A stretch of DNA of 64,000 nucleotides from Vicinamibacterales bacterium (GTDB taxonomy: Bacteria; Acidobacteriota; Vicinamibacteria; Vicinamibacterales; UBA2999): assembly GCA_050250955.1 (NCBI GenBank), contig JBFWNR010000002.1:537634-601633 (forward strand), in the 5' to 3' direction. Every line of letters begins with the position of its first letter. Within the stretch, counting starts at the first letter, position 1. The position numbers and the translations under genes were made by a program. The notes below the pieces were generated by a model. It saw only the letters and a list, made by a program, of their open reading frames with translations, ran no database searches and was not told where the DNA came from. Below are positions 16,822-64,000 of this stretch, piece by piece.

Positions 16822-16837
16822 GGGCGGCCGCACCCCG

Positions 16838-16864
16838 CCGCTAGCCCCTAGCCGCTAGCCCCTA
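16838..16864. repeat. CTAG heptad repeat (GCTAGCC/CCTAGCC x4) between convergent genes
   Basis: Plus strand: ccGCTAGCC CCTAGCC GCTAGCC CCTAttc, with period 7. Minus strand: TAGGGGC TAGCGGC TAGGGGC TAGCGGC, whose first TAG is the stop codon of the 16862..17560 gene. The upstream TAGGGGC (16819-16825, stop of the M24 gene) is complementary to GCCCCTA units. Confidence 0.9.
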
Positions 16865-17560
16865 TTCGTGATCCTTGACGCAGGTGACCAGCGTCCACAT
16901 CGGCGGCACGTTCACCTTCTGGATCGAGATCGGGGTCAGATCGGCCTGGTGCAGGAACCCGTGCAGGTCGAGGTCGCTCTTGAAGCCGATGTGCACGGTC
17001 ATCGGCGAGATCGCCGTCTCGATGCGTGACAGCAGCGCGTTGTCGCTCTTGAAGTGGTTCAGGATGACGATGCGGCCGCCGGGCTTGCAGACCCGGCGCA
17101 TCTCCCTGGCGACGGCGACCGGATCGGGCACGACGCTGATGAGATACGGCGCGTAGACGATGTCGAACGCGTCGTCCTCGAAGGTCAGGGCGGCGGCGTC
17201 CATCTCGAAGACGCGGCAGTTGTTGAGGCCCTTCTTGGCGATCCGCTCCTGGGCCTTTTCGAGCATGCCCGTGGACAGGTCGATGCCGGTGATCTGGCAC
17301 GAGCGGGGATACAGGCCCAGGTTGATGCCGGTCCCGACCCCGACCTCCAGTACCGAGCTGCCGGGGCCGATGGCCATCCGGTCGATGGCCTGCAGGCGGC
17401 CGGGGTGCAGGGTGGGTCCGAACGTCAGGTCGTAGACGCCGGCCAGCTTCTCGTAGACCCGCTCGACGAACGCGTTCTCGACGGCGGTCGACGACAGGGC
17501 CCGGGTGGCGGCATCGCCACCGAAGAGCTTCTCTGTCGGACGTTCGCTGAACAAGGCCAT
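16862..17560 (-). CDS. Class I SAM-dependent methyltransferase, PmtA-like (phospholipid N-methyltransferase type)
   Basis: 232 aa, ATG at 17560 with a GGGAGGG Shine-Dalgarno upstream. VYDLTFGPTLHPGR...VLEVGVGTGINL...FDIVYAPYLISVVPD...GGRIVILNHF resembles the Rhodobacter/Sinorhizobium-type PmtA from memory. GC looks slightly lower than the flanks. Confidence 0.75.
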   Translation of the reverse strand: MALFSERPTEKLFGGDAATRALSSTAVENAFVERVYEKLAGVYDLTFGPTLHPGRLQAIDRMAIGPGSSVLEVGVGTGINLGLYPRSCQITGIDLSTGMLEKAQERIAKKGLNNCRVFEMDAAALTFEDDAFDIVYAPYLISVVPDPVAVAREMRRVCKPGGRIVILNHFKSDNALLSRIETAISPMTVHIGFKSDLDLHGFLHQADLTPISIQKVNVPPMWTLVTCVKDHE

Positions 17561-36873: not shown

Positions 36874-37067
36874 GACCTCCGTCGCCGGCGACGGGCCGGC
36901 GCGACGCCCCTCACACCTCACACGTCGGTCCGGGCTGCCAGGAGGGTACGATCTCGCGCTGGGGGCACCCGGCAGAGCGCCCGGTCCTCAGATTTCGGCG
37001 TGAGGGACGCCACGTCGTCCCGTCCCGCTCGTCTGCGACCGTAGTAAGCTGAGTCGCTGTCCCACGT

Positions 37068-56220: not shown

Positions 56221-58284
56221 ATGGCCATCCGCCCTGCCGTGGCACCGCCGGAATCATCGGTCGAGACGGCGTGCCCGCTCGACTGCCCCGACGCCTGCAC
56301 GCTGTCGATCACCCTGAGGGGCGGACGCATCGCCACCATCGACGGCGGCCACACCAACCCGGTCACCGGCGGCTACATCTGCGCCAAGGTCCGTCGCTTC
56401 GGGGCTCGCGTCTACGGCGACGACCGCCTGCACTTCCCCGCCGTCCGCGCCGGCGCCAAGGGCACGGCGAGCTTCCAGCGCGTGAGCTGGGATGACGCCC
56501 TCGATCGCATCGCCGAGCGGCTGTCGACGATCCGGGCCGAATCAGGCGGCGAGGCCATCCTGCCGCTGTGCTACGGCGGCTCGAACGGCTTCCTGACCCA
56601 GGACGGCGCCGACGCGTCGCTGTTCCGGCGTCTCGGCGCCGCCCGCCTGGCCCGCACCGTGTGCGCCGCCCCGACCGGTGCCGCCAACCAGGCGCTGTAC
56701 GGCAAGATGGCGTCGGTCGTCTATCAGGACTATCCCGAGGCGCGGTTGATCCTGCTGTGGGGCGTCAACCCGTCGGCCTCCGGCATCCACCTGATGCCGT
56801 ACCTGAAGGATGCCCGCGCCCGCGGCGCGACCATCGTGGTCGTCGATCCCCGCGCGACGACGGTCGCCCGCCAGGCCGACATCCACCTGGCGATCCGGCC
56901 GGGAACCGACGTCGTCGTGGCGCTGGCCATCCATCGGCACCTGTTCACGAGCGGGACCGCCGACGAGCGCTTCCTCGCCGAGCACACCACCGGGGCCGAG
57001 CAGCTCCGCCGGCAGGCCGAGCCGTGGACGTTCGCCCGCGCCGCCGAGGTCAGCGGCCTCGGGGCCGAGGACATCGAACGCGTCGCCCGTCTCTACGCCA
57101 CGAGCCAGCCGGCGCTGATCAAGTGCGGGTGGGGCCTCGAACGCAACCGCAACGGCGGCAACGCCGCACTGGCGGTGCTGGCCCTGCCGGCGGTGGGCGG
57201 CAAGTTCGGCGTCCGCGGCGGCGGCTATTCGATGAGCAACTCGGCGTCGTGGGGGATCGCCCGCTCGTGGCTGCGCGACGCGGAACCGCAGACGCGCGTG
57301 GTGAACATGAACCAGGTCGGTCGTGAACTGACCGACCCGACCGGGACGCCGACCCGCGGGCTGTTCGTCTACAACTGCAATCCGGCGGTGACCCTGCCCG
57401 ATCAGCAGCGCGTGCTGGCCGGGCTGGCCCGCCCGGACCTGTTCACGGTGGTGTTCGATCAGGTGTTGACCGACACGGCCGCCTTCGCCGACGTGGTCCT
57501 GCCGGCGACGACCTTCCTCGAACACTACGACTTCGCCAAGGGGTACGGCGCCCTCAGTCTGCAGCTGGCCCGGCCGGCCATCGAGCCGATCGGCGAATCG
57601 CGGCCGAACGCCGACGTGTTCCTGGCGCTGGCGGCGCGGCTCGGGCTCGACGCGCCCGACGATCCGGCCGACGAACTCGAACAGATGCTCGGAGTGATCG
57701 CCGCTCTGCCCGGGGCCGTGGGCGATGAGATCCGTGCGCACGGCCACGCGACGCCGCCGCACGGCGGCCGGCCGGTGCAGTTCGTGGACGTGTTTCCCCA
57801 GACGCCGGATCGGAAGGTGGCGCTCTGGCCGGAAGGGATCGCCAGCGACGCGCCGCTGGGGCTCTACGCCTACGTCGCCGATCCGGGGACGCCCGAGTTT
57901 CCCCTGGCGCTCATCTCTCCCGCCTCGGAGCGCACCGTCAGCTCGACGCTCGGCGAGTTGGATCGCCCACGTGTGCTCCTCGAGATGCACCCCGACGACG
58001 CGACGCCGCGCGGCATCGGTGACGGCGACGACGTCCGCGTCCACAACGCGCTCGGCGCCATGGAGTGCGGCGTGAAGGTCACGCCGCTGGTCCGGCCCGG
58101 CACCGTGTCGTTTCCGAAGGGCGTGTGGCGGCGGCACACCGGCAACGGCCTCACCGCCAACGCCCTCGTCCCCGACACGCTGACCGACCTCGGCGGCGGT
58201 GCGTGCTTCAACGACGCCCGAGTGGAGGTGGCGCTGGTCGCCACCTCCCGCCGATCGCGCACCCGCCCGGAGCGGGTGCAATAG
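56221..58284 (+). CDS. Molybdopterin-dependent oxidoreductase (MopB superfamily, N-terminal 4Fe-4S)
   Basis: 687 aa. CPLDCPDACTLSI...YICAKV is the Cys cluster. LWGVNPSAS and VVVDPRAT. C-terminal molydop-binding beta barrel (MHPDDA...GDGDDVRVHN). The predicted Mo-ligand position carries Cys (TVCAAPTG). Confidence 0.9.
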   Translation: MAIRPAVAPPESSVETACPLDCPDACTLSITLRGGRIATIDGGHTNPVTGGYICAKVRRFGARVYGDDRLHFPAVRAGAKGTASFQRVSWDDALDRIAERLSTIRAESGGEAILPLCYGGSNGFLTQDGADASLFRRLGAARLARTVCAAPTGAANQALYGKMASVVYQDYPEARLILLWGVNPSASGIHLMPYLKDARARGATIVVVDPRATTVARQADIHLAIRPGTDVVVALAIHRHLFTSGTADERFLAEHTTGAEQLRRQAEPWTFARAAEVSGLGAEDIERVARLYATSQPALIKCGWGLERNRNGGNAALAVLALPAVGGKFGVRGGGYSMSNSASWGIARSWLRDAEPQTRVVNMNQVGRELTDPTGTPTRGLFVYNCNPAVTLPDQQRVLAGLARPDLFTVVFDQVLTDTAAFADVVLPATTFLEHYDFAKGYGALSLQLARPAIEPIGESRPNADVFLALAARLGLDAPDDPADELEQMLGVIAALPGAVGDEIRAHGHATPPHGGRPVQFVDVFPQTPDRKVALWPEGIASDAPLGLYAYVADPGTPEFPLALISPASERTVSSTLGELDRPRVLLEMHPDDATPRGIGDGDDVRVHNALGAMECGVKVTPLVRPGTVSFPKGVWRRHTGNGLTANALVPDTLTDLGGGACFNDARVEVALVATSRRSRTRPERVQ

Positions 58285-58296
58285 GCCAGTCCAGGC

Positions 58297-58506
58297 TTAC
58301 GCGGCTTCGCTCGCTTCGGGCAGCTTGCCACGACCGCCGCGGCTGACCATCCCGCCCTTGCGTCCGGCGTCGCGCGCCTCGACCGACGACCATTCGTGCG
58401 CCGTGCCTTTGGCATGCGCGGCACGGCCGCCCTTGCTGGCGATCTCGCGCTGCTTCTCGGGGGACATCGATGCGAATCCTCGACGGGCCTTCGGCTTGTC
58501 AATCAT
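58297..58506 (-). CDS. KGG-repeat general stress protein (YciG-like)
   Basis: 69 aa. SPEKQREIASKGGRAAH and GRKGGMVSRGG. GAGGTG Shine-Dalgarno 7 nt upstream of the ATG. Confidence 0.8.
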   Translation of the reverse strand: MIDKPKARRGFASMSPEKQREIASKGGRAAHAKGTAHEWSSVEARDAGRKGGMVSRGGRGKLPEASEAA

Positions 58507-58640
58507 CAGGGCACCTCGCTGCCTGTGGTAACTGCAGCGTGCGTACCAGCTGTGCAGGATCTACGCTCAGCCGTATCTCACTGAAAACAAATGCATTGCG
58601 ACCCAATCACATCTGTTTACATCATGCGGAACGTAGTCAA

Positions 58641-58670
58641 TTGATACGTTTGACCATTGTTGGGTATCAA
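58641..58670. promoter_or_regulatory. Inverted repeat TTGATAC-N16-GTATCAA inside an AT-rich island upstream of the KGG gene
   Basis: Perfect 7-bp arms. On the minus strand the left arm also reads as TTGATA-N18-TATCAA (-35/-10-like). Hand count for 58561-58680 gives 51 G+C out of 120. Confidence 0.4.
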
Positions 58671-58734
58671 AACACTTCACCCAGGGATGCGCTCGGGGCC
58701 GGTCGACGGCGCGCCCACCGGGAATCGGGCTGGC

Positions 58735-58950
58735 TCAGGAGCGGCGATCGGGCGGCGTCCTGGCGGGCCGAAAGTAGTCGCAGCCCGCGCAGTTGCTGAC
58801 GTCGAACTCGTAGCCGACGACGGGCCACAGCATCGGATGCGCGCAGTACACGAGCTGGCCGTCGATGATGGTGTGGAGCCCCAGGTCGGCTGGAACGGTC
58901 ACGGTGCGGCGGCTGTACCAGCACACGCGATGGCGATCCTCGGGAGTCAC
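58735..58950 (-). CDS. Hypothetical small Cys-containing protein
   Basis: The track ORF starts at TTG 59001. In-frame GTG 58950 gives VTPEDRHRVCWYSRRTVTVPADLGLHTIIDGQLVYCAHPMLWPVVGYEFDVSNCAGCDYFRP. No family recognised. Confidence 0.4.
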   Translation of the reverse strand: MTPEDRHRVCWYSRRTVTVPADLGLHTIIDGQLVYCAHPMLWPVVGYEFDVSNCAGCDYFRPARTPPDRRS

Positions 58951-59012
58951 GGCAGCGGTCGGTTCATGATACGCCCGGCGGTCACGACGGCCCTGGTACA
59001 ATCGTCCTCGCG

Positions 59013-59306
59013 ATGAGCGACCGTTCCGACTCTCCCCGCCTCGTGCAATGCGTCAAGCTCCAGCAGGAGCTGCCGGGACTGGAGGCGCCGCCGTGGCCAG
59101 GCGACATCGGCCAGCGGATCTACGAGCAGGTGTCGGCCAAGGCGTGGAAGCTCTGGGAGGATCGCCAGAAGATGATCCTCAACGAATACCGCGTGATGCC
59201 CTGGCAGAAAGAAGGGCAGGAACTCATCCTCAAGCACATGGAGGAGTTCTTCTTCGGCGCCTCGGCCGCGCTGCCGCCCGGCTACGTCCCGCCGCAGTCG
59301 AAGTAG
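59013..59306 (+). CDS. yggX: Fe(2+)-trafficking / oxidative-damage protection protein YggX
   Basis: 97 aa. VQCVKLQQELPGLEAPPWPGDIGQRIYEQVSAKAWKLWEDRQKMILNEYRV...MEEFFFG. Confidence 0.85.
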   Translation: MSDRSDSPRLVQCVKLQQELPGLEAPPWPGDIGQRIYEQVSAKAWKLWEDRQKMILNEYRVMPWQKEGQELILKHMEEFFFGASAALPPGYVPPQSK

Positions 59307-59316
59307 CGGCGGGCCG

Positions 59317-60609
59317 CTACCCGCGCGCCACCGGCAGGGCCGGCTCGATGACCGGCTCGATGGCGGCGTGCGCGCGGCGCAGCGCCGCTTCCACCGCTGC
59401 CCCGTCGGCGCCGGAGGCGAACACGAACCCCAGATAGCTCGCCCCCTCGGGCAGAGCGTCCAGCAGCGCGCCGACCCGTGCGGTCACGACGACGTCGGTG
59501 ATCCCGGGCACCTGGCGTGCGGCATCGATGCCGCGCAGGTCGCGCAGCACCCCGGAACGCGGGATCGGCACCATCAGCACCCCGGTGGCGGCGCGGTCGC
59601 GACTCCAGCCGACGAGCGACTCCCCCATCGCCGCGCGCAGCAGCAGCGCCTCGAGCGACGCCGGTACGTGGTCGGGGCCGCGAAAGCAGAGCGCGCGGGC
59701 GCACAGGCCGCCGATCGGCCGCGCCGCCACCTCCAGGACGACCGGGCCGGCGTCGCCGACGCGGCATTCGGCGTGGATCGGACCGTGGCGCAGCCCGGCG
59801 GCACGCGCGGCCTGCGTGACCGCGGCGATCACCGGCAGCGCGGCGGCCGCGGTGCGCGCGGTGGGTGTGACGTAGTAGGTCTCCTCGAAGAACGGCCCAT
59901 CGAGCGGATCGGGCTTGTCGAAGATCGCCAGCACGTGCAGGCGGCCGTGGTCGAGGACGCCTTCGAGCGCGACCTCGAAGCCGGGCACGAACGCCTCGAT
60001 CTGGACCAGCCGGGCGGCGGGGTCGCGGAGTGCCTGCACGTCGGGAGCGGCCAGGACGCCGGCCACCCGCGTCAATGCGGCGGCGAGCTGTTCCGGGTCG
60101 TCGGCACGGATGACCCCGCGGCTCCCCGAGAGCACGAGCGGCTTCACCACGCAGGGGTATGTCACGTCGCGTAGCCGGTCGACCGAGGCATCCAGCGGCA
60201 CGACGCGCGACCAGGGCCCCGGCAGCCCCGCGGCGGCGATACGGCGGCGAAACCGCTGCTTGTCGCGACTCGCCCGCGCCCCGTCAACCTCGTGCCACGG
60301 CAGGCCCAGGCGCTCGGCGACCAGGGCCGCGAGCACCACCGGCCGGTCGCCCACCGCCAGCACGCCGTCGATCGGCCGGCCGTCCAGCGCGGTCGTCACC
60401 GCGGCCAGCGACCCGGCCTCGTCGTGGAAGCGGACGGCGATGGCGCGGTCCCGCCAGGGATCATCGAGGTGATCGCAGCGGTCGGTGGCGAGCACGAGCT
60501 CGACGCCGAGCGCCGTCGCGGCCTCGTCGAAGCTGCGCGTCTGATAGCCGGTGGTCGTGGCGCAGACCAGCACGCGACGTGGCTCGGAGGGTCGAGACAC
60601 GCAGTCCAT
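59317..60609 (-). CDS. ATP-grasp domain protein (amino-acid/carboxylate ligase-like)
   Basis: 430 aa, ATG at 60609. Pre-ATP-grasp RVLVCATTTGYQTRSFDEAA...IDGVLAVGD. Core KQRFRRRIAAAGLPGP...YPCVVKPLVLSGSRGVIRADD...IEAFVPGFEVALEG...GPIHAECRV...VLEVAARPIGG. Confidence 0.85.
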   Translation of the reverse strand: MDCVSRPSEPRRVLVCATTTGYQTRSFDEAATALGVELVLATDRCDHLDDPWRDRAIAVRFHDEAGSLAAVTTALDGRPIDGVLAVGDRPVVLAALVAERLGLPWHEVDGARASRDKQRFRRRIAAAGLPGPWSRVVPLDASVDRLRDVTYPCVVKPLVLSGSRGVIRADDPEQLAAALTRVAGVLAAPDVQALRDPAARLVQIEAFVPGFEVALEGVLDHGRLHVLAIFDKPDPLDGPFFEETYYVTPTARTAAAALPVIAAVTQAARAAGLRHGPIHAECRVGDAGPVVLEVAARPIGGLCARALCFRGPDHVPASLEALLLRAAMGESLVGWSRDRAATGVLMVPIPRSGVLRDLRGIDAARQVPGITDVVVTARVGALLDALPEGASYLGFVFASGADGAAVEAALRRAHAAIEPVIEPALPVARG

Positions 60610-60610
60610 C

Positions 60611-60645
60611 CTAATCGCTAGCCGCTAGCCGCTAGCCGCTACGAG
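60611..60645. repeat. CTAG heptad repeat, five units (CTAATCG CTAGCCG CTAGCCG CTAGCCG CTACGAG)
   Basis: Fills the 38-nt spacer between the second stop of the radical SAM gene (60650-60648) and the ATP-grasp ATG (60609). Minus strand reads TGA TTC TCG TAG CGGCTAGCGGCTAGCGGCTAGCGATTAGG ATG. Confidence 0.9.
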
Positions 60646-60647
60646 AA

Positions 60648-62027
60648 TCATAGGAGAGCCACCTGCTCTCCCGTCGGTTCCGCTCAACAGTACCAGGGCT
60701 CGGTCAGGTAGGGAATCGTCGCCCGCGACCGTCGCGGCGGCTCGGTGCGCGCCGGCATGCCCCGGGCGCGATCGGCCAGCTGCCGCACGGCGGCGAAGAT
60801 CGCGCCGCGATCGCCGCCGGCCGGTGCCGCGGCGACCAGCCGCATGGCCTCGCGCTGCAGGTCATCCATGGCCGGATCGTCGTGGCGCCACGGGTGCGTC
60901 AGCGACCGGGCGTCGAACGCTCCCACGCGCCGCCGCACGTCGTCGAGTTCGAGCAGCCGCGAGCGCGCGGTGACGAGCAGGCGGAGGGTCAGCTGCACCG
61001 GCGCCACGTGGCCGACCAGGTCGAGGCGCTCCACCTCGTCGAGGAACGCCGCATAGCCGTCGCGGGTCGTCCACGGCGTGAAGGCGATGAAGGTCGGCGA
61101 GAGCGCCAGCCCGACGTCGCGGCACCGCGCCACGACCGCCGCGACGTCGGCCGCCGTGTGCCCCTTGGCCAGACGCGCCAGCACCGCGTCGTCGAACGAC
61201 TCGACCGCCGTGGTCACGAATTGGCACCCGGTGTCGCGCAGGACCGGCAGCGCGGCATCGTGGGCGCGGAGGTGCTCGACCTTGATCGTGACGTCGTAGG
61301 TCAGCGCCGGCCAGGCAGCGTGCAGGGCCTCGACGACACGGCGGGCATGGGTCGGCGCATTGAGGAAGTCGGGATCGCCGAAGCTGATGTGCGCGGCGCC
61401 GGCGGCCACCTGGGTGGCGACGTCGGCCATCACCACCTCCACCGGCACGACGCGGAAGCGGCCGTCGTAGACCGGCACGATCGGGCAGTGCCGGCAGCGG
61501 TGCTTGCAGCCGCGCGACGCCTCGGTGGCGCCGGCGGTGACCAGCGTGCCGTCGGTCCGCCGCAACCGGGCGTAGGCGGTGAGCGGCGGCAGGTCGCGGC
61601 GATCCGGCGGGATGAACGCCAGCCGCGGGAGCGGGGCCGGGGGCGGCGTGCCGAGGGCGCTGCCGGCCGCCGCCGCGGCGGCGAGATCGACCAGCGTCGC
61701 CTCGGCCTCGGGCCCGACGACGGCGGTGATGCCCGCCGCTTCGAGCTCGACGCGGTTGAGCGGCGCGTACAAGCCGTAGGCGCACATCGGCAGCGACGGC
61801 AGCCGCTGGCGGATGGCGGCGACGACCGGCAGGGCGAGCCGCGTCGCCGTGTGCATCGGCAGGTGCACCGCGACCAGCGTGACACCGTCGAGCGCCGACG
61901 AGGGCAGCCGCGCCAGCGACAGGTCGTGGGCCCGGACAGCGAACCCGGCCCGCCGCAGCCACGCCGCGGGCGAGGCCAGTCCGAACGGCTGGCGGCCGAG
62001 ATCGTACGCCGACAGCAGCAGGACCAG
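60648..62027 (-). CDS. B12-binding-like / radical SAM protein with C-U-A-E-P tail (putative selenoprotein)
   Basis: Track ORF 60684..61868 (GTG start, stops at TGA). Radical SAM Cx3Cx2C in ASRGCKHRCRHCP. Upstream, the same frame stays open to 62051 and encodes the coding-like STLVLLLSAYDLGRQPFGLASPAAWLRRAGF.... There is no ATG, GTG or TTG there, so CTG 62027 is the proposed start. Downstream read-through gives U-AEPTGEQVALL, then TGA at 60650-60648. Confidence 0.75.
60652..60672 (-). promoter_or_regulatory. Bacterial SECIS-like hairpin downstream of the in-frame UGA
   Basis: Minus-strand RNA: UGA GCGGAACCGAC G-GGAGAGC-AGGUG-GCUCUCC-U. It has 7 Watson-Crick pairs plus a closing G-U and a 5-nt loop containing GGU. 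The stem begins 11 nt after the UGA. Confidence 0.6.
60684..60686 (-). other. In-frame TGA, candidate selenocysteine codon (C-U-A-E-P)
   Basis: Minus strand reads TGT TGA GCG GAA CCG. See the CDS 60648..62027. Confidence 0.65.
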
Positions 62028-62031
62028 GGTG

Positions 62032-63519
62032 CTACCCCGCCGGCTCGTCGGTCAGCCGGCTCATCGGCTTGACGAAGAGCGCCAGGACCAGACCGGCCGC
62101 GATCGCGAACGCGCCGACCACGCCGAACAGTGTCGGCAGGGCCATCGACTCGTAGAGCCCGCCGATCCGCCCGCCGATGAAGTTGCCGACCGATGTGCCG
62201 AGGAACCACACGCCCATCACCAGGCCGGCGATCCGCGCCGGCGCCAGCCTGGTCATCGCGCTCAAGCCGACCGGCGACAGCGACAGTTCGCCCATCGTGT
62301 GCAGCAGATAAGTGAGCACCAGCCAGAGCGGGCTGGCGAGCACGCCGGCTTCGGCGGCGCGCGCCGGCGGCACCAGGACGACGAAGCCCAGTCCGACGAG
62401 CACCAGCCCCCAGACGAACTTGCCGGGACTGGTCGGCTCCAGACCGCGCGCCCCGAGCGTCACCCACAGCCAGGCGAACACCGGCGCGAGCGTGAAGATG
62501 AAGAACGAGTTCACGCTCTGGAACCAGCTGCTCGGAAACGGCAGCCCGAAGACTTCGGTCCGGGTGTCGCGATCGGCGAAGAGATTGAGCGTCGAGCCGG
62601 CCTGCTCGAACACCGACCAGAACAGCGCCGAGGCGAAGAACAGCACGCCGATCACGTAGAGGCGGCGGCGCTCGGCCGGCGTCCAGTCGCCGGCGAAGAA
62701 CAGCCAGCCGAAGAACACGACGGTGCTGACCAGCAGCGCGACCCCGGCGGCATCGGCCACCGCGACGGCCGTGATCGGCAGGGCGCCGCTGGCGCCGCCC
62801 AGCCCGACGACGGCGGCGAGGCCGAGGGCGATGGCGCCCCACAGCCCGGCCTGGCGCCGCGCCACCGCCTGGGCGGCCGGGGCGGCCGCCGGGTGCAGAC
62901 CGGCCTCGCCGAGCAGGCGGTTCCCGGTGGCGACGTACTGGATGAGGCCCAGCGTCATGCCGACGCCGGCCGCCGCGAACCCGGTGTGCCAGCTCACCCG
63001 CTGGCCCAGGTAGCCGCAGACCAGCGGCGCCAGGAACGCCCCGAGGTTGATGCCCATGTAGAAGATCGAGAACCCGGCATCACGGCGCTGATCCTCGGGC
63101 CGGTAGAGGTGTCCGACGATCACCGAGACGTTGCCCTTGAGCAGCCCGGTGCCGACGACGATGAAGGTGAGGCCGAGGTAGAAGGTGGCCTGGGTCGGAA
63201 TCGCCGCGGTGAAGTGGCCGGCGGCGATGATGACCCCGCCCCAGAGCACCGCCCGCCGCGGGCCGATCAGACGGTCGGCCACCCAGCCGCCGGGCAGCGC
63301 CGCCATGTAGGCCATCGAGGTGTAGAGCGCGTAGATGGCGCCGCCCTCGGCGGCCGACAGGCCCAGGCCGCCGGCGGCGAGCGGCGCCGTGCAGTAGAGC
63401 AGCAGCAGCGCCCGCATGCCGTAGAAACTGAAGCGCTCCCACATCTCGGTGAAGAAGAGGGTGGAGAGGCCGCGGGGGTGACCGAAAAAGGCGGTGTCCG
63501 ACGAGGGCGCCTGGGCCAT
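62032..63519 (-). CDS. POT/PTR2 family proton-dependent di/tripeptide transporter
   Basis: In-frame ATG 63519. FFGHPRGLSTLFFTEMWERFSFYGMRALLLLY and GGWVADRLIGPRR are PTR2 signatures. About 14 TM helices. Confidence 0.9.
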   Translation of the reverse strand: MAQAPSSDTAFFGHPRGLSTLFFTEMWERFSFYGMRALLLLYCTAPLAAGGLGLSAAEGGAIYALYTSMAYMAALPGGWVADRLIGPRRAVLWGGVIIAAGHFTAAIPTQATFYLGLTFIVVGTGLLKGNVSVIVGHLYRPEDQRRDAGFSIFYMGINLGAFLAPLVCGYLGQRVSWHTGFAAAGVGMTLGLIQYVATGNRLLGEAGLHPAAAPAAQAVARRQAGLWGAIALGLAAVVGLGGASGALPITAVAVADAAGVALLVSTVVFFGWLFFAGDWTPAERRRLYVIGVLFFASALFWSVFEQAGSTLNLFADRDTRTEVFGLPFPSSWFQSVNSFFIFTLAPVFAWLWVTLGARGLEPTSPGKFVWGLVLVGLGFVVLVPPARAAEAGVLASPLWLVLTYLLHTMGELSLSPVGLSAMTRLAPARIAGLVMGVWFLGTSVGNFIGGRIGGLYESMALPTLFGVVGAFAIAAGLVLALFVKPMSRLTDEPAG

Positions 63520-63561
63520 ACGCGCGGGTATTGTATCCTTCGCGCCAGGCCGATACCGCGC

Positions 63562-64000
63562 ATGCCACTCGACGAATACCGCAGGAAACGCGACTTCACC
63601 AAGACACCCGAGCCGTCGGGCGAGCCCGGCCCGCGGCCGGCCGACACCAGCCGCTACTTCTGCGTCCAGAAGCACCTGGCCAGCCATCTCCACTACGACC
63701 TGCGTCTCGAACACGACGGCGTGCTGCTGTCATGGGCGGTGCCCAAGGGCCCCTCGCTCGACACCCGCGACAAACGCCTGGCCATGCAGACCGAGGATCA
63801 TCCCTACGACTATGGGTCGTTCGAAGGGGTGATACCCGAGGGCTACGGCGCCGGCGTGGTGATGCTGTGGGACTACGGCACCTGGACCCCGGAGTCGCCC
63901 GACGTCGACGCCGCCCTCAAGAAGGGCGATCTGAAGTTCCGTCTCGACGGCTACAAGCTGAAGGGCTCGTGGGCCCTCATCCGCACCCGCGGCTACGGCG
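63562..64000 (+). CDS. ligD: DNA ligase D, 3'-phosphoesterase domain (partial, continues beyond window)
   Basis: Not in the ORF track (no stop inside the window). Own translation from ATG 63562: MPLDEYRRKRDFTKTPEP...YFCVQKHLASHLHYDLRLEHDGVLLSWAVPKGPSLDTRDKRLAMQTEDHPYDYGSFEGVIPEGYGAGVVMLWDYG. Confidence 0.85.
   Translation, partial: MPLDEYRRKRDFTKTPEPSGEPGPRPADTSRYFCVQKHLASHLHYDLRLEHDGVLLSWAVPKGPSLDTRDKRLAMQTEDHPYDYGSFEGVIPEGYGAGVVMLWDYGTWTPESPDVDAALKKGDLKFRLDGYKLKGSWALIRTRGYG

Follow-up and report, generated by a model that had tools for sequence, protein, structure and literature searches.

An ArsL-related radical SAM gene with a predicted selenocysteine codon, and its ligase and iron-helper neighbours, in a Vicinamibacterales genome

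To our knowledge, ArsL is so far the only radical S-adenosylmethionine (SAM) enzyme with the canonical cysteine motif known to make a 3-amino-3-carboxypropyl (ACP) radical. This enzyme of arsinothricin synthesis (arsQML; family NF040542) cleaves SAM to methylthioadenosine (MTA) and the ACP radical, which is added to As(III) held by a C-terminal CCxxC tail (bioRxiv 10.1101/2024.02.01.577332; 10.64898/2026.04.29.721666). A relative of ArsL is encoded in a 64-kb window, the whole stretch of DNA analysed here, from a Vicinamibacterales bacterium (GCA_050250955.1, contig JBFWNR010000002.1; GC about 73 %). At 59317-63519 of the window, three genes on the minus strand code for a POT permease, a radical SAM protein and an ATP-grasp protein (Table 1). 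The initial annotation of this DNA had described them as co-directional and tightly packed, and the gaps of 4 nt (given a CTG start, discussed below) and 38 nt confirm this. It had also taken the cluster for an uncharacterised system; this stands for the radical SAM–ligase unit but not for the radical SAM family, which already bears the name NF040546, 'CUAEP/CCAEP-tail radical SAM (seleno)protein'.

Several other described systems share traits with the locus. The rare vicinal CU dipeptide of the radical SAM protein is found in HgcA, MerB-like SAO proteins and MerT variants, and Haft proposed that the CU motif interacts with a heavy-metal atom, listing NF040546 alongside (bioRxiv 10.1101/2022.07.06.499078). 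However, the folds and contexts of those proteins differ, and no mercury or organometal genes were found at this locus. The logic of PylB and PylC, whereby a non-proteinogenic amino acid from a radical SAM enzyme is joined to another amino acid by an ATP-grasp enzyme, had been invoked as an analogy only, and as such it is fair. Neither model is among the NCBIfam matches at E ≤ 0.001, the enzyme subfamilies differ, and the pylD and pylS/T context is missing. BacD (bacilysin) and DdaF (dapdiamide), which belong to dipeptide antimetabolite pathways, and BL00235 have the same three-domain L-amino-acid ligase (LAL) architecture as the ATP-grasp protein, and the BacD and DdaF pathways also follow the logic of ligating an unusual amino acid, made by neighbouring genes, to a carrier residue. 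Those pathways are sporadic gene clusters, whereas in Vicinamibacterales the present cassette is vertically inherited at a fixed chromosomal position. Lastly, the ACP-radical enzyme Dph1-Dph2 receives iron from Dph3, which permits aerobic activity (PMC8251694). This combination of an ACP-radical Fe–S enzyme with a small iron partner may be matched by the YggX and Nfu genes that recur beside the CUAEP gene, although the folds and families are unrelated and the Dph substrate is a protein histidine.

Table 1. Features of the locus, in window positions
Feature	Position	Strand	Model or method
POT/PTR2-family proton:oligopeptide symporter gene, 495 aa, ATG start	62032..63519	-	PF00854, TIGR00924
POT stop/radical SAM start junction: TAG (62034–62032), CACC, CTG (62027–62025)	62025..62034	-	
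Predicted CUAEP-tail radical SAM selenoprotein gene, 459 aa with Sec448	60648..62027	-	NF040546
In-frame UGA, predicted selenocysteine residue 448	60684..60686	-	TGA/TGC comparison
SECIS-like hairpin GGAGAGC–AGGUG–GCUCUCC	60653..60671	-	covariation
38-nt spacer with (TAGCGGC)×3.7 heptamer array	60610..60647	-	Tandem Repeats Finder
L-amino-acid-ligase-type ATP-grasp gene, 430 aa	59317..60609	-	PF18130, PF13535, PF18603
YggX-type Fe(2+)-trafficking protein gene, 97 aa	59013..59306	+	PF04362

The radical SAM protein and its Cys-Sec tail

The radical SAM protein scores 588.8 bits against NF040546 (cutoff 500), with residues 2–457 aligned to model positions 1–467 of 468, and is thus a member of that family. 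An identical public protein, from a metagenome-assembled genome of Vicinamibacterales (Acidobacteriota), carries the same name, and the scan of species-representative genomes found a family member in at least 536. The second-best family is ArsL, at 228.7 bits over residues 2–394; the third reaches 43 bits. The ArsL score lies below that family's cutoff of 450, and the protein ends in a CUAEP-type tail rather than RCCLKC, so it falls outside the ArsL family itself. By these scores ArsL is nonetheless the closest named relative and a more specific mechanistic lead than PylB. In a sequence search of the PDB the sole match was NocN (E 4e-4), with no ArsL structure among the matches.

The protein has the PF04055 core and a CxxxCxxC motif made up of C174, C178 and C181; the sequence CKHRCRHC is invariant in 155 family members. 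Apart from the three cluster ligands, the only cysteine positions invariant across these 155 CUAEP/CCAEP proteins are C268 and the tail pair C447-U/C448, where U is selenocysteine (Sec). The tail reads …IPYLTEPWYC-U-AEPTGEQVALL and so contains the C-(U/C)-A-E-P motif. The N-terminal domain had been called B12-binding-like. This is a sub-threshold resemblance: with a gathering score of 32.1, PF02310 gives 13.8 bits for the present protein and 25–27 bits for two homologues. The protein therefore resembles class B (cobalamin-dependent) radical SAM enzymes without belonging among them.

ArsL and the CUAEP protein share the same architecture over about 400 residues, ArsL being the best family match after the protein's own, and both families have a Cys-rich C-terminal tail. 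Each also has three extra invariant thiol-type ligands. In four ArsL-family proteins all three are tail cysteines and the column of C268 holds Val; in the CUAEP enzyme two lie in the tail, one of them selenocysteine, and C268 of the core makes the third. Three such ligands would suit a three-coordinate soft atom. The RCCLKC tail of ArsL lies at the terminus, whereas the C-U/C-A-E-P motif is followed by 7–25 more residues. The contexts differ as well, as CUAEP loci are partnered by YggX or Nfu, without ars genes or ArsM nearby.

Comparative evidence supports the reading of the in-frame UGA as selenocysteine. Beyond this TGA the frame continues for 11 codons to a second TGA at 60650–60648. Across 79 orthologous loci the codon is TGA in 74 and TGC (Cys) in 5, and the A-E-P that follows is conserved, E450 and P451 being invariant in the 155 members, Cys-type proteins included. 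A hairpin with a 7-bp helix and a GGU-containing loop begins 12 nt past the UGA. In an ungapped alignment of 73 sequences (A1), its pairing is kept in 89 % of cells, compared with 42–50 % when the 3' partner is slid, and double-sided changes number 44 against 15.5 in shuffles, with none of 500 shuffles reaching the observed value. The minimum-free-energy fold (–18.2 kcal/mol) includes the hairpin. Its stability by itself is not significant (z = –1.6, in a 73 % GC context), and for this reason the case for the hairpin rests on covariation. Cys-type tails lack the sequence constraint in the hairpin region. Thus, the Cys-Sec tail proposed in the initial annotation is borne out by the codon distribution, the conserved tail and the compensatory changes in the hairpin. 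An Rfam scan of 59000–64000 gave no SECIS or riboswitch model and only chance snoRNA and miRNA matches. The only tRNA in the window is a tRNA-Leu.

A CUAEP/CCAEP-tail gene is also present on the megaplasmid of a cultured bacterium, Thermomicrobium roseum DSM 5159 (NC_011961.1; locus L161, 8935-10450), where it is annotated to end …WFC. The TGA stop is followed by AEPLEDPSGP… and by a GGACCC-GUC-GGGUCC hairpin. Given this TGA, tail and hairpin, T. roseum probably makes the Sec form and the annotated protein is probably truncated. The neighbours of the gene are an aminotransferase and an MFS transporter, with no ligase within 9 kb.

The ligase, the iron helper and the permease

Three domains of the ATP-grasp protein score above gathering: ATPgrasp_N (PF18130, 42.5 bits), ATP-grasp_4 (PF13535, 90.4 bits) and LAL_C2 (PF18603, 61.1 bits). 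Over its full length the protein matches BL00235, an L-amino acid ligase of solved structure (3vot; E 1.9e-31, residues 51–411), and its similarity to BacD and DdaF is weaker. It is therefore assigned by domain content to the L-amino-acid-ligase type. The resemblance to amino-acid ligases noted earlier is in agreement with this, and the purine or biotin-type carboxylase that had been named as the alternative does not apply. All equivalog cutoffs are far above its scores (for BacD, 39 bits vs 850) and the public homologues bear generic names only. The start is ambiguous between ATG 60609, which gives 430 aa and a 38-nt spacer, and GTG 60573, which gives 418 aa and a 74-nt spacer; a public annotation of the gene (P0121) takes the GTG. 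A literature search found no paper linking ArsL-like or CUAEP enzymes with ATP-grasp ligases.

Gene neighbourhoods were compared in three sets: a genome sample of 80 loci, mostly from Acidobacteriota, at 52–80 % identity; a metagenome sample of 80 loci, collected with a Cys-type member as seed (54 CC-type and 23 CU-type; GC 0.35–0.71); and 8 further Pfam-labelled places with independent gene calls. For tblastn gene searches the set comprised 160 CUAEP/CCAEP loci, each taken with flanks of up to ±10 kb. The ligase gene lies downstream of the radical SAM gene on the same strand in 66 of 71 genome-sample loci, in 61 of them directly adjacent. In the more divergent metagenome sample it comes after the radical SAM gene in 21 of 44 loci, and it is present in all 7 metagenome contexts among the Pfam-labelled places.

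A third recurrent partner, overlooked in the initial annotation, is an iron-trafficking gene. In the window this is YggX (59013–59306; PF04362, 108.7 bits vs a gathering score of 27), convergent with the ligase gene and 10 nt from its stop. A YggX-type gene occurs within 2.5 kb downstream in 58 of 69 genome-sample loci, usually convergent with the ligase gene. Elsewhere the partner is a protein with Nfu_N and NifU domains, encoded immediately ahead of the radical SAM gene (gap –53 to +70 nt; 20 loci by tblastn), and the usual order in that clade is Nfu→radical SAM→ligase. Rearranged forms also occur. In another clade, of CU type, YggX is co-directional and 10 nt upstream of the radical SAM gene, and in two of its loci the ligase gene is 5–10 kb away. 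On low-GC marine metagenome contigs (L111, L114, L115) a rhodanese/A-type Fe-S_biosyn/NifU fusion is encoded directly upstream, and no ligase was seen near the gene in that clade. Among the Pfam-labelled places, five have the order Nfu→radical SAM→ligase and two the order radical SAM→ligase←Iron_traffic, and the outer flanks of these seven are unrelated. The remaining place, in the cultured Ferruginivarius sediminum, lacks both the ligase and a helper.

The ligase and the helper come together: of 93 testable loci, 73 have both, 2 the ligase only, 4 the helper only and 14 neither. These joint counts and the rearranged forms lead to the conclusion that the conserved module is the radical SAM gene followed by the ligase gene, plus a gene for an iron or iron–sulfur helper, YggX or Nfu. 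YggX is likely an accessory to the radical SAM enzyme. With regard to the trio that had been proposed, the pairing of radical SAM and ATP-grasp is upheld by the neighbourhood comparison and the inclusion of the POT permease is not.

The permease itself is, as had been stated, of the POT type, scoring 216.9 bits against PF00854 and 421.5 bits against TIGR00924 (cutoff 130.2), both above cutoff. Its gene is the immediate upstream neighbour of the radical SAM gene in 24 of 72 genome-sample loci (14 co-directional, 10 divergent) and adjoins it in 2 of 43 metagenome-sample loci. An SSF symporter takes its place in 11 genome-sample loci, and other genes do so elsewhere. POT is thus a lineage-specific upstream neighbour that lies outside the conserved core.

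Within that lineage, the junction between the two genes is unusual. The radical SAM frame is open from 62027 and has no in-frame ATG, GTG or TTG upstream of 61868; as a result, the reported 4-nt gap holds only if translation begins at the CTG (TAG-CACC-CTG). The public protein (P0001) begins MVLLLSAYDL, and therefore the public gene call uses the CTG at 62027. A CTG stands at aligned residue 1 in seven related genomes (L001–L004, L008, L020, L041), in all of them 0–3 nt past the POT stop or overlapping it as CTGA, and in 5 of the 7 a canonical start is wholly missing from the radical SAM frame. With the window included, this junction is found in 8 genomes, the CTG being 0–4 nt after the POT stop or overlapping; the remaining POT-linked relatives have a GTG start 12–33 nt after it. 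By this conservation the CTG is judged a genuine start and no artefact. The junction is a probable case of termination–reinitiation coupling with a non-canonical start, and because the conserved CTG starts lie at the POT stop, mostly with no canonical start in the frame, radical SAM translation in this subclade very probably depends on ribosomes finishing POT.

It is quite possible, at somewhat less than even odds, that the permease is no pathway component but a housekeeping peptide importer that came by chance to lie upstream in one Vicinamibacterales lineage, the real unit being the radical SAM, ligase and YggX genes. The adjacency counts fit such an account, particularly the 10 close loci in which POT is on the opposite strand, as do the SSF symporter or unrelated genes in its place elsewhere. 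Speaking against it are the CTG junctions, through which radical SAM translation would be tied to POT, and the transporters of other families found near the gene in T. roseum and Ferruginivarius and in most ArsL islands (see below).

Proposed chemistry and competing explanations

Given that the radical SAM–ligase pairing recurs in many genomes, the cluster probably makes a modified amino acid or dipeptide. The reading that we prefer, with a probability of about 0.45, follows ArsL by analogy: ACP would be transferred to a soft atom held at Cys268, Cys447 and Sec448, and the product would then be ligated into a dipeptide, with an iron helper in attendance. The [4Fe-4S] cluster would cleave the Cγ–S bond of SAM to give MTA and the ACP radical. 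A soft atom bound by Cys268 in the core and by Cys447-Sec448 on the flexible C-terminal tail would capture this radical, and the product would be a γ-substituted L-2-aminobutyrate, which the ligase would couple to a second L-amino acid with ATP. YggX or Nfu would keep the oxygen-labile cluster loaded in these aerobes, and the permease, where present, could move the dipeptide or a peptide-derived substrate. Every chemical step of this scheme is modelled on ArsL, whereas the comparisons described above show the identities of the genes, the signals for decoding Sec, the synteny, the coupling and how the families are related.

The partnership with an ATP-grasp enzyme is seen around ArsL as well. 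Four ArsL-family plasmid islands, in Pantoea (L162, 5995-9960), Alicyclobacillus (L163, 2112-7266), Klebsiella (L164, 5995-9956) and B. cereus (L165, 671-6807), each have a small CMD-family gene and an uncharacterised ATP-grasp_4 gene together with a radical SAM gene with an RCCLKC tail. The B. cereus island lacks ArsM and an MFS transporter, which the other three have; the islands further hold a CobW GTPase and a GNAT gene, and most an aquaporin-type channel and ArsR. Thus, the combination of ArsL-type radical SAM gene, ATP-grasp gene and transporter gene recurs in both sister families. The gene content of the islands suggests that these bacteria convert arsinothricin, or its precursor, into a peptide. 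A literature search found no paper on this gene combination or on such a peptide.

A number of points weigh against the ArsL-like proposal. Identity to ArsL-family proteins is only about 27 %, and therefore the regiochemistry of Cγ–S cleavage may not be shared. The island ATP-grasps are 35–44 % identical to one another but 23–25 % identical to the window ligase, and the parallel may for this reason reflect independent recruitment. No nearby ligase is present in 5 of 71 close loci, in 23 of 44 distant ones or in either of the cultured carriers examined, Thermomicrobium roseum and Ferruginivarius sediminum. The model names no captured atom. The fixed, vertically inherited position is more in keeping with a housekeeping metabolite than with an antibiotic cluster of sporadic occurrence, and POT proteins are normally importers. 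Finally, NF040546 is given as uncharacterised in the Haft 2022 preprint (bioRxiv 10.1101/2022.07.06.499078), and a literature search found no later paper on this family.

Chemistry based on a 5'-deoxyadenosyl radical would be the usual expectation for the canonical CxxxCxxC motif and PF04055 core. Here the enzyme would carry out a rearrangement, a methylation or C–H functionalisation on a free amino acid later coupled by the ligase, as with PylB/PylC, or on a dipeptide made by the ligase, with the Cys-Sec tail serving as a redox or electron relay rather than for substrate binding. The weak matches to class-B (B12-domain) families would suit this explanation, as would the disulfide reductase encoded directly downstream in Ferruginivarius, a plausible partner for a redox-cycling CC/CU pair. 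Yet that neighbour was seen once only and does not recur, the B12-domain match is below threshold, and ArsL itself has the canonical motif while cleaving the other C–S bond. As the ArsL family also outscores any canonical family about fivefold (228.7 vs at most 43 bits), we regard canonical chemistry as unlikely. If the enzyme were instead an isofunctional variant of ArsL, it would make hydroxyarsinothricin from As(III), with Sec tightening arsenic binding and the ligase making an arsenic dipeptide. The sister relationship to ArsL, a three-ligand thiol/selenol site suited to As(III), and the ATP-grasp and MFS genes of the ArsL islands all lend themselves to this idea. The score, less than the ArsL cutoff, and the missing RCCLKC tail do not, and arsenic genes are essentially absent from the 160 loci. 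In tblastn searches of those loci ArsR, ACR3, ArsC, aquaporin and CobW gave no match (0/160), and for ArsM and ArsN1 there was a single weak partial match apiece (L053 and L032); in the window the sole ArsM-type match is methyltransferase-like (16997–17359). Because none of these seven arsenic-related queries found a meaningful match, arsenic is an unlikely substrate of the family; an arsenic pathway was rejected, and an arsenic-handling ArsL variant appears distinctly improbable. Radical SAM and ATP-grasp enzymes also occur together in some pathways for ribosomally synthesised and post-translationally modified peptides (RiPPs), and the pair could in principle modify an overlooked precursor peptide in the manner of a RiPP or graspetide system. 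This is extremely improbable: the ATP-grasp protein has the LAL architecture, LAL_C2 included, of enzymes that act on free amino acids; the match to RiPP radical SAM families is 24 bits against a cutoff of 282; and the genes that recur alongside are for iron helpers rather than for peptides or proteases. The 4-, 38- and 10-nt gaps contain no small conserved open reading frame (ORF), in accord with the earlier remark that no precursor peptide was evident in the spacers.

If the ArsL-like proposal is right in outline, the CUAEP/CCAEP family might represent a second, much wider branch of ArsL-type ACP-radical chemistry, one that forms a C–heteroatom bond to an atom other than arsenic and, through the ligase, yields a new dipeptide. 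We consider this extension rather doubtful. Candidate atoms would be sulfur and selenium, hinted at by the Nfu, rhodanese–Nfu and sulfate-assimilation neighbours of some genomes, by the Cys-Sec pair and by the disulfide reductase neighbour. Many soil Acidobacteria and marine Proteobacteria would then produce the metabolite constitutively; it could be an antimetabolite, or else a thiol or selenol of low molecular weight. Were this so, a sister family present in at least 536 scanned species-representative genomes would make ACP-radical chemistry common rather than an arsenic curiosity. Characterisation would point to a new amino acid or dipeptide of abundant, hard-to-culture soil bacteria and would assign a function to the rare Cys-Sec motif. 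The experimental handles are three candidate ligand residues, natural variants of Cys type and two cultured carriers.

Sulfur-related neighbours, spacer arrays and flanking genes

A few genomes have sulfur-related genes beside the radical SAM gene. In Ferruginivarius sediminum (L166, 1262-10475; Cys type) the gene comes directly after cysG-DUF2849-cysI-DUF934-cysH and precedes the pyridine-nucleotide disulfide reductase gene and an MFS gene. In two other Cys-type loci (L167/L168, 1-8659) genes for CBS, a cystathionine γ-lyase-family protein and a rhodanese adjoin, and in another (L169, 1604-7650; Cys-type) an EgtB/EgtD-like pair does so. Such neighbours are a hint towards sulfur or selenium. 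In the 160 loci, however, searches for CysG, CysH, CysI and CBS gave no matches, and the Cys_Met_Meta_PP (cystathionine γ-lyase family), rhodanese and disulfide-reductase queries each matched a single locus. As a context for the family, sulfur assimilation is thus anecdotal, not recurrent.

The initial annotation was also correct that a repeat fills the gap between the radical SAM and ATP-grasp genes. The spacer (60647–60610) reads ttctcg(TAGCGGC)×3 tagcgattagg, and Tandem Repeats Finder places the array at 60616–60641 (period 7, 3.7 copies, 100 % match). The same unit recurs in the window at 16837–16864, as its reverse complement, and other perfect or near-perfect arrays of 7–9-nt units occupy short intergenic spacers at 2953-2991 and 36909-36923. 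Orthologous spacers contain unrelated 7–9-nt arrays (L005, L006, L007, L014, L023, L026, L033, L036, L044 and others), and TAGCGGC was not found as a unit in 168 fetched loci. A role for the repeat as a cluster-specific signal was rejected, given the second copy in the window and the unrelated arrays in other genomes. The array is one of a genome-wide class of intergenic heptamer arrays and is probably not peculiar to this cluster; we take such arrays to resemble the STRR heptamer repeats of cyanobacteria. A scan of 58500–64000 for promoters and terminators gave nothing above shuffled controls.

Beyond YggX, two small minus-strand genes separate the cassette from a gene for a molybdopterin oxidoreductase (56221–58284). 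One (58735-59001) is an 88-aa Cys-containing ORF that has no Pfam match and is kept in six related loci; the other, beside it (58297-58506), encodes a KGG stress protein.

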